64,000 nucleotides of DNA, taken from the IMG/VR virus record IMGVR_UViG_3300030329_005813, positions 96,001 through 160,000 of that record, one strand, 5' to 3'. This document shows positions 2,403-25,485 of the stretch, in pieces. Numbering within the stretch: the first letter of the stretch is position 1; each line of letters begins with the position of its first letter. The notes under the pieces were generated by a model that worked only from the letters and a program-made list of their open reading frames with translations, was not told the DNA's origin and did not search any database. The position numbers were made by a program, and so were the translations under genes. This DNA is from a virus.

Positions 2403-3617
2403 CTATATATCAAGCTTAAGTTTAAATGTCAAGTCTCTATCTTCAGTTTTCTTAACTGGGGTGGCGACAGTGGCAATACCAATCACATTTTTATATTGAT
2501 CATAGATGGCGACTTTACTAATATAAGTAATTTTTTGGAAACTAGCCGTTGGTTCATTATACGAAGCACTCACGGTGTTTTTAATAATTGCGTCGCGCTC
2601 CACGTACTGATACGTACCGGTCATAGGGTTAGCAAACGAAGCGCTACTTTCCTGATCAATAAAAGTTGGATTATTCGAATAGTTTAGTTCACCTCGGGGG
2701 GCGTGAGCCATCATTGTAACATTTGGAACATAGTGAGTTCCGGAGAAAGCCATATAAAAACTAGCTGATGCTCTTGTTTGTGTTGAGGCTGTTTCACCTG
2801 ACGAGCCGGTAACACCATCGTTGGCACCGACACCAAAGTGAATCCATTTGGCAGAATCGACAGTTGTTCCGCCGGTATACTTTAATTGTCGATCATTAAT
2901 CGCCCAAGCTCCTGTTAAACACAAGAACCCTTCATTATAAAGTGCAACACCAGCAACTGAACCAGAATTTGGGGCGCCGTATGGGGCAACTTGTATAAGC
3001 TCTCCGTTTCTATTTACATCTCTTAACTGCCCAACCATTGTACCGGTTACATAAAATCTTAAATCAATGCTTCCTTTTTTAATAGAGGAGCCATAAAAGA
3101 TTGATGGAATCTCAACTAAGCCAAGTGCTTGAGAAGCCTTGTTGCCCATAGATGAAGAAAATTGATAATGCTTGCTGAGGGGTGTATAATGGTTTAATGT
3201 ATTCTTTAACGCGTCGACGTGTTTTCTTGTTGCGCTGGCAGCATAATAGCTTTTCTTGATTGATGCCGTTAGAGGATAGGAGCCGGTTATTTTTGCTCCA
3301 TAAGAAAACTGTGTCCTGTAATCGGAGTCTGATATGGTGCCTTTAGCACCACGAGCTATTACCTCAACTTCTCCACCCTTTGTTATTAAAGGGTATACCA
3401 GACCAGTATCGCCCGAAAGGCGATCAACATTTAGCTCATATAAGTTTATAAACCCAGGGCTTACGTTTGGTACACTTGGAGTAAATGAGCCTGACTTAAG
3501 AGAACGGTTGTTAAAATAGACTACAGAATCATAAATAAAAAATTCGTATTGTGGATGAGTCTTGAGACGATTATAAAACAAATCATCCGAAGCGAATTTG
3601 TATAAATTCGTGGGCAT
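2403..3617 (-). CDS. Virion structural (tail/baseplate) protein
   Basis: C-terminal ..NYSNNPTF..TYISKVAIYDQYKNVIGIA.. domain paralogous to 3633..4715; lies in structural module; GGAGGAG RBS. Confidence 0.7.
   Translation of the reverse strand: MPTNLYKFASDDLFYNRLKTHPQYEFFIYDSVVYFNNRSLKSGSFTPSVPNVSPGFINLYELNVDRLSGDTGLVYPLITKGGEVEVIARGAKGTISDSDYRTQFSYGAKITGSYPLTASIKKSYYAASATRKHVDALKNTLNHYTPLSKHYQFSSSMGNKASQALGLVEIPSIFYGSSIKKGSIDLRFYVTGTMVGQLRDVNRNGELIQVAPYGAPNSGSVAGVALYNEGFLCLTGAWAINDRQLKYTGGTTVDSAKWIHFGVGANDGVTGSSGETASTQTRASASFYMAFSGTHYVPNVTMMAHAPRGELNYSNNPTFIDQESSASFANPMTGTYQYVERDAIIKNTVSASYNEPTASFQKITYISKVAIYDQYKNVIGIATVATPVKKTEDRDLTFKLKLDI
2404..2432 (-). promoter_or_regulatory. Candidate sigma70-type promoter, possibly leaderless, for ruvC-primase
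   Basis: TTGACA (2432-2427), 17 nt, TG-n-TATATA (2409-2404); ATG at 2397 sits at the expected +1; no SD. Confidence 0.5.
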
Positions 3618-3632
3618 GCCCCACTCCTCCCT

Positions 3633-4715
3633 TTAGTAGTCCAGTCTAACGCGCAATGTAAGTTCGTTTGAAGGAGTTTTCTTAAGGGGCTCGGACAATT
3701 TGGCAACGGCTAACAATTCTTTATCAGCGGAATACAGTCCAATCGTTGTTATGTATGCAACCGGCTGATCTCTAGAAACCTCTTTTACTCTGATCTTACT
3801 TCCACTTAAATAAGTCGGATTTGAACTATAGTTAAAATCACCGTGGTTAGCACGGCAGAAGTAGATTGTACTATTAAGTTCTGTTGTATTGTTGAACTCA
3901 ATGTTAATCAGTCGTGTTCGGAAACCATCAGCAGAGGCTGAAATAGCTGTACCTGACATCACCGTATTAATATTTCTTGTGTCGGCTGATGTCGCCGAAG
4001 AGCCAAAGCTTGATCCGAAGTCGTTAGCGGCTGATGAGGTAAAAACTGATGCGGTGAGTACGCAGATTCCCGCTTGGTAATAAAGCAGCCCAACGCCAGA
4101 CTCTTCATTTGGGGTTGCAGAACTTGTATATAAAATTCCATATTCGCCAGCAGGTGAGTTGACCTTGTAAGAGGTATCCGCACCATAATCGCCAACGGTC
4201 ATAGAATTTAAGAAACGAGAGTTCCCTGCCGTACCACCAGTAGCAAATGACATTCTAAAAGTATTTTTTTGAATCTCATCTTTGGTAAGAAGACGCGCAA
4301 AAGATAAGAAAAAAGCTTCTTTAATTTTGTTGCCGCCTGTCAAGTCTCCATCACGATCAAACTGTCGGACAGCACCAGTATGGTCAAATCCGACAAGCAT
4401 CTGAGCCATCTGATTGTAGATGTTAATTTTTTTGGATTGCATCTGTTGAGCCAATGGAGATGAATTGGACATAGCAGAGTCGGCGGGGTACCCAACCGTA
4501 ATATCAAAAATATGGTTGGCTGAGGAACTTAAGTAAGGATAATCATAAACCGATTGAAACATACCATGGCTATAGTTTTTAATATTTGTTTCATTGGTTG
4601 TACCTTCGACGTAAGTACCAGAGACAATTGATCCAGTAATCGGAATCACCTCGTGCAGAAGTGTTCGCGTTGTTGCTAAATCATTATTGCTAAAAGTTTT
4701 ATATGTAGATGCCAT
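3633..4715 (-). CDS. Virion structural (tail/baseplate) protein
   Basis: C-terminal FNYSSNPTY..YITTIGLYSADKELLAVAKLSEP, resembling the C-terminal half of tail-collar fibre domains. Confidence 0.7.
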   Translation of the reverse strand: MASTYKTFSNNDLATTRTLLHEVIPITGSIVSGTYVEGTTNETNIKNYSHGMFQSVYDYPYLSSSANHIFDITVGYPADSAMSNSSPLAQQMQSKKINIYNQMAQMLVGFDHTGAVRQFDRDGDLTGGNKIKEAFFLSFARLLTKDEIQKNTFRMSFATGGTAGNSRFLNSMTVGDYGADTSYKVNSPAGEYGILYTSSATPNEESGVGLLYYQAGICVLTASVFTSSAANDFGSSFGSSATSADTRNINTVMSGTAISASADGFRTRLINIEFNNTTELNSTIYFCRANHGDFNYSSNPTYLSGSKIRVKEVSRDQPVAYITTIGLYSADKELLAVAKLSEPLKKTPSNELTLRVRLDY

Positions 4716-23875: not shown

Positions 23876-23883
23876 TTATTAAC

Positions 23884-25485
23884 TTATTCCACTCTAAATT
23901 TAAATGTTTCCGGTTGCTCATCCCAAGACCCAACGGAGCCATTATAGTAAGCCACTTTGATAGCATATGCGTATCCTGGTTCAAACAATCGCATATCAAC
24001 GTCAAAATAGTTTCCTGAAACGTCGTATGACATTTGTGTGTGTAGCAAACTACCGGTGCCGTGTGGAATAACTTCAAGCTCATCTATGACTCTGTAAAAT
24101 CTATAAGACCCACTATCAATAATATATGGAGTTGCCTCAACAGTGGCTTTAGTGTAAATAGTTGGGCACCAATCTTTTTGTCTGACATATAATCTAAAAC
24201 GAGCTTGTTCATTCGTGGAATATATTGATTTTAAATTCGTAATGCTAGAAGCATAAGTTGTAGATGGATTTAAAGCAGGAGTATCAAACTTCTTGGGCCT
24301 AAATGATGAAGTTAAAAATTCTATTCTGCCGGTTTGATTATGAACGCCTGTGTTTGCCCAAACAGCGTATACTTTCGTTATGTCAACTGTTGAGGAAGTA
24401 ATTGCAAAAGATGCAGAGTATATTCCTGTTGAAACATAACCACCTGTAATCACTGTGTTGCCAGCCGCTTGAACGCCGCCACCTTGAGGAAGCAAAATTG
24501 ATGATGTTGATGGAGATGTATTTCCTATAGATCCTGAATAGAGTTCTACAAAAAGAGGTCCAGTGCCGATGTCTGGAATATTTCTTAGTTGCCCTCTAAC
24601 GTAGTTATACATATAAATTGTATTTAAGTTTTCTGCTTGCGGGGCCAACGAGCTACTAAAAAATATGTTGCCAGTGTCGTCTTTAGTAGCGCTATTCCAT
24701 CGAGCCTCAAGGCAGGGACGCTTAAAGAAAAACTCAGTTCCCCTTGCAAAAAACTTCTTTGTATAGAACGAAGTAGTTGACCCAGTAAGATTATTTAAGT
24801 TTCCATCGTGGTCTGTTCCGGATGGATTTCCTTGAAAGTAGGCCTCTTGTGATCCTGTTAGGCGAACTATAAAGCCATGATTCTTTTTTGTGCCGTCAAG
24901 CCATTGTTCGACTAACGTTGTCACGTTAATTTTTAAATCCGCGGTTGGGCCGCTACCAGTTACTCCTGATACACCTGCACCAAAAGATGCCGTATATGTA
25001 GGAGACTGGTGGAAATTTCCACCTTGCCTATCCCACGCAACCCGAACTCCATTGTCACCATCTTCGGCATAAACCCAGTTACAACCACCATCTCCATTAG
25101 TTAGATCTGTATAGCCTTCCATATCTAGGCCTTTGCCTTCGGACCAATCTTTTTGTAGTGCCTCGATCACTAAAATTGCATTTTTTGGAAGAGTCTGACT
25201 ATGTTCAGCGTTATACAATCTTAAATAAAAATCTACTTGGTTTGCAGCAGGTAAATCACCATTGTTTCTATCGACTTTAATGGTATTTGCGGCGCCGGAC
25301 AAATCAAACTTGATTAGGGCTCGCGCAAGCTCTTGAGACCCGGATGATTCTTGCCCATAGATAGAAAATACTTCTAGTATATCAGATAAACCCATATTAG
25401 CACCAGTAGCTCGGGTTGTTAGATTACTTTGAAAAGCGTTTGTTATTGTGTTGTCTGCACTGGCATAATATCTCTTAATAGCCAT
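23884..25485 (-). CDS. Baseplate-associated structural protein (DNRLRE-like beta domain)
   Basis: ADNTI..NMG..RALIKFDL..LRLY..W.EG.G..INVT.LV..WL...NHGF pattern; position after gp6-like gene. Confidence 0.6.
   Translation of the reverse strand: MAIKRYYASADNTITNAFQSNLTTRATGANMGLSDILEVFSIYGQESSGSQELARALIKFDLSGAANTIKVDRNNGDLPAANQVDFYLRLYNAEHSQTLPKNAILVIEALQKDWSEGKGLDMEGYTDLTNGDGGCNWVYAEDGDNGVRVAWDRQGGNFHQSPTYTASFGAGVSGVTGSGPTADLKINVTTLVEQWLDGTKKNHGFIVRLTGSQEAYFQGNPSGTDHDGNLNNLTGSTTSFYTKKFFARGTEFFFKRPCLEARWNSATKDDTGNIFFSSSLAPQAENLNTIYMYNYVRGQLRNIPDIGTGPLFVELYSGSIGNTSPSTSSILLPQGGGVQAAGNTVITGGYVSTGIYSASFAITSSTVDITKVYAVWANTGVHNQTGRIEFLTSSFRPKKFDTPALNPSTTYASSITNLKSIYSTNEQARFRLYVRQKDWCPTIYTKATVEATPYIIDSGSYRFYRVIDELEVIPHGTGSLLHTQMSYDVSGNYFDVDMRLFEPGYAYAIKVAYYNGSVGSWDEQPETFKFRVE

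Follow-up and report, generated by a model that had tools for sequence, protein, structure and literature searches.

A serine-ending tripeptide in virion proteins of Far-T4-like myoviruses as a candidate O-glycosylation sequon of a phage-encoded GT4 pair

Mycobacteriophages encode glycosyltransferases (GTs) that decorate their own virion proteins, and the resulting glycans have been proposed to act as a shield (Freeman et al. 2023, Cell Host Microbe, as cited in PMC12619734 and PMC12582341). Here we describe a motif that may mark a comparable system in a 64,000-nucleotide stretch of viral DNA (positions 96,001 to 160,000 of IMG/VR record IMGVR_UViG_3300030329_005813), hereafter called the window. 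The tripeptide [ST]-[GAS]-S is strongly enriched in four putative tail or baseplate proteins encoded there. Judging from sequence comparisons, we consider it probable that its extended form, hydrophobic-[S/T]-[G/A/S]-S-hydrophobic, serves as acceptor sequon for a cytoplasmic protein O-glycosylation pathway that is encoded by a clade of Far-T4-like myoviruses and written by two adjacent GT4 enzymes, GT-A and GT-B. As in the mycobacteriophage type, the phage carries its own GTs (Pfam hits to GT2, GT4 and GT29, plus the invariant GT4 pair). Unlike the reported mycobacteriophage glycans, which sit on the C-terminal ends of capsid and tail tube subunits, the motif is absent from the tube, occupies internal positions of the capsid protein, is dispersed in dozens of copies over baseplate, fibre, sheath and neck proteins, and differs between clades.

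A second precedent is the GtfA/GtfB complex, which primes serine-rich repeat proteins on alternating serines (S-x-S) for variable extending GTs (PMC6973325). The present loci likewise carry two adjacent GT genes, with GT-B directly after GT-A in 76/76 untruncated loci among 80 relatives, together with variable candidate extenders, although here the complex is a prediction only. The differences are substantial: there is no Pfam match to DUF1975, the match to Gtf1 (4pqg) spans 67 residues (E 0.003), both partners keep the E-x7-E motif of GT4 enzymes, unlike the chaperone GtfB, the putative acceptor sites are scattered through folded domains instead of forming repeats, and an accessory Sec system is lacking. 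The intact E-x7-E of GT-B led us to reject a strict GtfA/GtfB model, in which this partner would be inactive.

Two further systems offer partial parallels. Chloroviruses glycosylate their capsids autonomously and encode the GT B736L/A546L, and the activity of B736L is unknown (PMC9614988). The system proposed here would share with theirs a virus-encoded pathway and an atypical sequon, and B736L is the best Protein Data Bank (PDB) match of GT-A, but chloroviruses are eukaryotic viruses with N-linked NTxT sites. The BAHT autotransporter heptosyltransferases TibC and Aah (PMC4358343) exemplify cytoplasmic bacterial hyperglycosylation at many sites on a beta-rich surface protein. Unlike these systems, the sugar-gene island beside the GT4 pair in the window has no match to PF21129 (TibC) or PF01075 (GT9), and a TibC/GT9-like fusion occurs only in a related clade. 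The general O-glycosylation sequon of Bacteroidota, D-(S/T)-(A/I/L/V/M/T), also differs, as Asp is depleted before the motif described here (0.4x).

The phage belongs to a 172-kb myovirus record with T4-like terminase, portal, capsid, sheath, gp25 and gp6 genes. In a set of 50,697 phage records, gp6 has full-length matches above 28% identity in Flavobacterium phage immuto, Microcystis phage Mel-JY01 and the uncultured LR756508, and homologues of the 360-aa gene (Table 1) come only from these three and Rhodothermus phage RM378. These matches fit the Far-T4-like aquatic phages (PMC4360716), which share the T4-like capsid, portal, sheath and gp6 and have RM378 and Immutovirus immuto as cultured relatives. 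The capsid protein is nearer to that of RM378 (E 6e-69) than to that of T4 (E 2e-31); the tree of these phages contains no published Far-T4 references and has weak deep nodes. Moraphages are reported to have four core GT families (PMC12619734). The searched passages of neither paper report the motif, those of the Far-T4 paper do not mention glycosylation, and a literature search found no paper describing [ST]-[GAS]-S. What is new here is the reciprocal exchange of motif and GT in complete genomes, the prediction of a GT heterodimer, and an argument from the DNA of phage immuto.

The tripeptide in the window and its relatives

An earlier note on this DNA had drawn attention to the tripeptide from approximate hand counts in four proteins. 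The counts prove exact, all four open reading frames (ORFs) lie on the minus strand (Table 1), and the enrichment survives 500 shuffles per protein (p<=0.004 each), amounting to about three to six times the chance level. The neighbours are motif-poor, as the note had claimed: gp6 (598 aa) has no site, the 2393-aa protein has 6 (4.5 expected), and the 1276-aa and 1304-aa proteins have 3 and 4. The genes for these last two (window positions 5688-13443) sit inside the baseplate block without family match or motif excess and may encode internal or ejected proteins. Because none of the four has a Pfam or PHROG match, their description as tail or baseplate proteins rests on synteny after gp25/gp6. 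The motif also extends to neck and sheath proteins encoded outside the window.

Since the motif was picked with the data in view, in proteins rich in Ser, Thr and Gly, an origin in chance, composition or a DNA-level repeat had to be considered. Several tests argue against this. When all 8000 tripeptides are ranked without preselection, TGS, TSS, TAS, SAS and SGS come in the top nine, whereas TGT, SGT and TAT are neutral, such that the signal is specific for Ser at position 3. Words selected in the 3117-aa protein are again over-represented in the three small ones (12 vs 2.3, p=5e-6), and the excess persists under a dipeptide-preserving null (73 vs 36, p=5e-8 overall), under which the 360-aa protein alone is not significant (p=0.19). 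The 73 sites are encoded by 69 different 9-mers that use both TCN and AGY serine codons, and no similar excess appears when the 3117-aa gene is read in its other five frames; selection thus acts on the peptide. Given also the reproduction across about 90 loci described below, we reject these origins, to which we assign a negligible probability.

The same pattern recurs in relatives. Each of 120 homologues of the 533-aa protein is enriched, with 1687 sites in total where 457 are expected, and so are orthologues of the 3117-aa protein. Every one of about 90 loci anchored on gp6 shows an excess downstream of this gene (1.8-7x), whereas the gp6 homologues of the fetched loci carry 120 sites vs 173 expected; a search among these loci for a motif-free member of the clade found none. 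Although the motif is retained, its positions turn over. The six words interchange within one alignment column, 7 of 68 site columns are fixed (>=80%), each sequence keeps 10-18 sites, and distant homologues (about 50% identity) share 52% of their sites. Decay of conserved sites affects position 3 more often than position 1 (188 vs 29, in sequences that are not independent). The hydrophobic residue that had been claimed to precede the sites is seen in the homologues as well, with L/V enriched about 2x at -1 and V/L about 2.3x at +3, while K, D, E and R are depleted. Among individual relatives, immuto has an excess in its spikes and fibres (60 vs 20 in one of them), Mel-JY01 has one in baseplate genes and sheath, and LR756508 has a weak one (12/5.7).

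The distribution over the virion is uneven. Beyond the window, the neck protein is enriched (6 vs 1.1) and the sheath more weakly so (8 vs 3.7), with sheath sites in insertions or the middle region; the C-terminal third, which is conserved with T4 gp18, is free of them. Most capsid sites likewise map to insertions (residues 174, 240 and 532 of 621 carry sites). The counts for gp6, tube (0 sites) and terminase do not exceed expectation, and the portal is near it. The portal homologue of LR756508 (145763, 1386 aa) is more than twice the usual length, probably through large insertions such as inteins. When sets are pooled, some of them assigned with the motif in view, observed and expected counts are 98/33 for outer, 10/12 for inner and 42/41 for non-virion proteins. 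Together, these data support the conclusion that the motif is a selected, protein-level feature of virion proteins that probably face outward.

A predicted structure of the 533-aa protein (mean pLDDT, predicted local distance difference test, 83.6) consists of a CBM-like sandwich that matches 8wab (Z 17.8, root-mean-square deviation 2.6, 173 aligned residues) plus Ig-like domains. No T4 baseplate protein is among its fold matches, which excludes nothing. As had been noted, the sites are dispersed in globular domains rather than confined to low-complexity tracts, and 9 of the 13 fall in loops or strand ends of the model. Could the motif then reflect a structural preference, with hydroxyl-capped strand ends or tight turns inherited within the clade in beta-rich outer proteins, while the GT pair does something else? 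Many sites, with their hydrophobic flanks, do fall within strands or at their ends, seven columns reach a fixation of at least 80%, and the 60 sites of the immuto tail spike may form a repeat. However, the motif spans unrelated folds and its positions turn over, and the comparisons with outgroups and a related clade given next also speak against this explanation, which we regard as unlikely, if the most credible of the alternatives.

A related clade with a different motif

Composition-matched virion proteins of four outgroup phages show no [ST]-[GAS]-S excess (T4 0.7x, 121Q 1.4x, S-WAM1 1.2x, S-CBS4 1.2x). In all four, the Thr-ending word roughly equals or exceeds it in frequency, with no preference for Ser. 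Since these beta-rich proteins lack the excess, a generic bias of beta proteins does not explain the motif. S-CBS4 has a distant GT-A-like gene (E 2e-10), yet no motif excess. RM378, which carries divergent GT-A and GT-B genes side by side, has a relaxed version of the motif: T-x-S occurs 276 times vs 147 expected proteome-wide, whereas TxT (1.02x) and SxT (0.96x) are neutral. About ten probable virion proteins of RM378 show an excess of [ST]-x-S, for example 56 vs 26 in an 806-aa protein at position 17847 (loci L032-L034).

A further comparison is provided by a related clade whose gp6 is about 25% identical. Its members were found via a short peptide pattern and were then confirmed as carrying gp6 homologues by a hidden Markov model (80/80). 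Pooled, they show little or no [ST]-[GAS]-S excess (1.4x). In structural proteins chosen by synteny, the three highest-ranking spaced words of an unbiased scan are TGxT, SAxT and SGxT, and [ST][GAS]S stands at 1.0-1.2x; the gp6 of this clade is nearly devoid of [ST]GxT (1 vs 32). The exchange is reciprocal in complete genomes, two of which (G022, G023) have the serine motif at 3.2-3.3x and the xT motif at 1.3-1.5x, while two of the related clade (G001, G005) have them at 1.0x and 3.6-4.4x, respectively. In a further genome (G007), a low-complexity fibre masks the block total, and individual proteins show the xT excess. Equivalent proteins follow the same rule: the related clade's sheath has 9 xT sites (2.2 expected), and its 992-aa homologue of the 3117-aa protein has 7 (1.2 expected) with 0 [ST]-[GAS]-S sites (1.8 expected).

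The glycosyltransferases differ in parallel. GT-A is absent from the related clade's four complete genomes, where the sugar island is headed by a different GT4, and this core GT4 is in turn absent from 18/18 GT-A genomes tested. Thus, the co-occurrence proposed in the earlier note is found, in that the clade without GT-A lacks [ST]-[GAS]-S and has [ST]-[GA]-x-T instead, and equivalent proteins appear to have changed motif together with the core GT4 in this single clade contrast. Such a joint change is not predicted by the structural explanation.

These comparisons bear as well on the idea that the motif is read by something other than a GT, either another phage modifier (a kinase, phospho-, acyl- or methyltransferase) or a docking partner such as an assembly chaperone or decoration protein. 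The statistics point to a lineage-specific reader of whatever kind, any clade-core gene would co-occur equally well, and many core genes lack annotation. Against this, the motif places two hydroxyl residues around a small residue, the phages carry a variable sugar island without a membrane exporter, and a core GT4 is swapped together with the motif, although the other core genes have not all been screened for the same pattern. We judge a non-GT reader unlikely too, and place it just behind the structural explanation.

The related clade's core GT4 (G001:C1:76511-77722, L334:16511-17722; 80 loci, median 79% identity) is a candidate writer of [ST]-[GA]-x-T. The same genome encodes a GT4 fused to TibC N-terminal-like and GT9 domains, a BAHT-like arrangement in which both matches fall below Pfam cut-offs (G001:C1:310025-312313, L346:10025-12313). 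This fusion lies near fibre genes with Ser/Gly/Thr collagen-like repeats and may represent a second, fibre-directed glycosylation system in the related clade.

The GT4 pair and the sugar island

The tandem pair is the only invariant part of the island (38793-52335); the other island genes match in just 0-22 of 80 relatives. The earlier suggestion that the motif is the acceptor for the phage glycosyltransferases therefore fits the pair, albeit indirectly, and not the remainder of the cluster, and the whole island as writer was rejected on the same ground. GT-B is found in 11/11 near-complete GT-A genomes and in 5/8 fragments chosen by baseplate gene. In relatives, its C-terminal 290 aa often form a gene of their own or part of another fusion. 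By Pfam, the variable part of the island in the window encodes a UDP-sugar dehydrogenase, an epimerase, two GT2 enzymes, a GT4, a GT29 sialyltransferase-like protein, NeuA, NeuB, a sulfotransferase-like protein and methyltransferases. It contains no membrane protein (maximum 19-residue hydropathy <=1.48). Positions 42067-44284 hold a NeuA-like cytidylyltransferase gene, the GT29 sialyltransferase-like gene and NeuB in a row, a nonulosonic-acid module without an exporter.

GT-A is modeled as a plain two-Rossmann GT4 whose best PDB match is chlorovirus B736L by both sequence (E 2e-8) and structure (TM 0.72), whereas GT-B has no PDB sequence match. Co-folding of the two with ESMFold2 yields a predicted heterodimer with an ipSAE of 0.90, against 0.00 for the best of 3 controls. 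This mark is reached by 58/80 solved complexes and 2/110 mismatched pairs, a calibration that applies only roughly because the alignments were our own. At least 97% of contacts agree between runs, partner pLDDT is at least 91, and the C-terminal tail of GT-A (residues 412-419) is predicted to pair with a conserved strand of GT-B (250-258). The prediction thus supports binding of GT-A to GT-B. LR756508 encodes a GT-A that ends before the interface tail, and has no GT-B. Its use as a clean negative control was rejected, since it has GT-A and a weak motif excess.

The cultured phages immuto, RM378 (with the relaxed motif) and Mel-JY01 carry both the motif and the GT pair, which in immuto has the accessions YP_010114502 (GT-A) and YP_010114503 (GT-B). 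For immuto, the nucleosides detected by liquid chromatography-mass spectrometry are dA, dC, dT and fdPreQ1, with no sugar-modified base reported (10.1101/2023.04.13.536721), which argues against DNA as the target of the pair in that phage. In Mel-JY01, a 1227-aa protein with a GT4-like region, annotated as an FkbM methyltransferase, is encoded beside motif-rich structural genes (L208:4750-8430).

If the motif is a glycosylation site, must the GT4 pair be its writer? The writer might instead be a GT of the host or a different one of the phage, for instance the domain that follows GT-B, while the pair and island modify the host envelope and block superinfection. Nonulosonic-acid genes are typical of lipopolysaccharide and capsule loci, and LR756508 keeps its weak excess without GT-B. 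For jumbo phages, GT clusters have been proposed to modify the host surface (PMC7824862). However, the motif is common to phages recorded from different hosts (Flavobacterium, Rhodothermus, Microcystis), the depletion of Asp at -1 is unlike the Bacteroidota sequon, and no other island gene matches in as many relatives as the GT4 pair. A different writer is improbable in our estimation, and we rank it third among the alternatives.

Table 1. Features of the window discussed in the text (expected site numbers are shuffle means)
Feature	Coordinates	Strand	Observations
404-aa protein; C-terminal domain matches same relatives as 360-aa protein	2403..3617	-	11 motif sites, 2.0 expected
360-aa clade-specific putative baseplate protein	3633..4715	-	7 sites, 2.5 expected; weakest of the four
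3117-aa putative outer baseplate/fibre protein, LamG-like N-terminal part	14522..23875	-	42 dispersed sites, 12.8 expected
533-aa protein encoded after gp6; CBM-like beta-sandwich and Ig-like domains	23884..25485	-	13 sites, 2.2 expected
gp6-like baseplate wedge protein, internal negative control	25485..27281	-	PHROG 219, E 1.5e-16; 0 sites
Variable sugar island, candidate elongation/capping module	38793..48990	-	Pfam hits
GT-B; N-terminal 410 aa (49850-51079) form the invariant GT4 partner of GT-A	48974..51079	-	E-x7-E intact
GT-A, GT4 glycosyltransferase, candidate priming enzyme	51076..52335	-	Pfam PF00534; E-x7-E intact

Atlas feature hits to PF13385 occur in 56-70% of cluster members of the 3117-aa protein. 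Similar short leaders (MKIT..L...I.EE or MKLLLENWR) open several unrelated ORFs, at window positions 612-953 and at 165645-172063 of genome G000.

Proposed pathway and its significance

The enrichment of the motif, and the different motif found with different GT genes in the related clade, indicate that the motif probably marks sugar attachment by the phage's own enzymes. We propose that, late in infection, the predicted GT-A/GT-B heterodimer would add the first sugar or sugars to a motif hydroxyl where the outer baseplate, fibre, sheath and neck proteins form extended segments. We weakly favour position 1 as the acceptor, since it is retained more often than position 3 and the related clade's motif has it too. 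The variable island would then extend the glycan and cap it; in this phage the cap would probably be a nonulosonic (sialic-like) acid, perhaps together with methyl or sulfate groups. The outcome would be a lineage-variable, probably anionic coat with a protective or anti-adhesion role.

Several observations weigh against this proposal. The glycan itself is inferred, as neither a glycan nor a mass shift nor any enzyme activity has so far been seen. The structures closest to GT-A are B736L, whose function is unknown (PMC9614988), and small-molecule GT4s such as MshA, with no known protein O-glycosyltransferase among them. Some sites are near-invariant (residues 277-279 in 86/86 sequences) and 4 of the 13 sites in the 533-aa model lie within beta-strands, so the sites could be structural. 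Non-virion proteins do not avoid the motif. The correlation between GT and motif is clade-wide and amounts to one contrast, with which any clade-core gene would correlate equally, and the tree leaves the direction of the motif switch unpolarised (35-57% support at deep nodes). Finally, the heterodimer score is a measure of model confidence, to which likeness to solved GT-B-fold oligomers may contribute.

A broader version of the proposal holds that large aquatic Far-T4-like myoviruses possess interchangeable writer-and-sequon systems. A heterodimeric, doubly catalytic GT4 would prime [ST]-[GAS]-S in one clade, a different GT4 would act on [ST]-[GA]-x-T in the related clade, and outer virion proteomes would have been rewritten to match. 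Very common phages would then wear a dense and variable glycan coat, and compact enzymes would recognise O-glycosylation sequons of three or four residues. We give this version an even chance.

If glycosylation by the GT4 pair is confirmed, a widespread group of aquatic phages would carry a glycocalyx-like coat encoded by a short linear sequon, which would bear on adsorption, decay, grazing and proteomic detection, and would explain conserved glycosyltransferases that are currently unassigned. To our knowledge, most O-glycosylation proceeds without a short consensus, and a soluble two-protein GT with a defined sequon would therefore serve glycoengineering.

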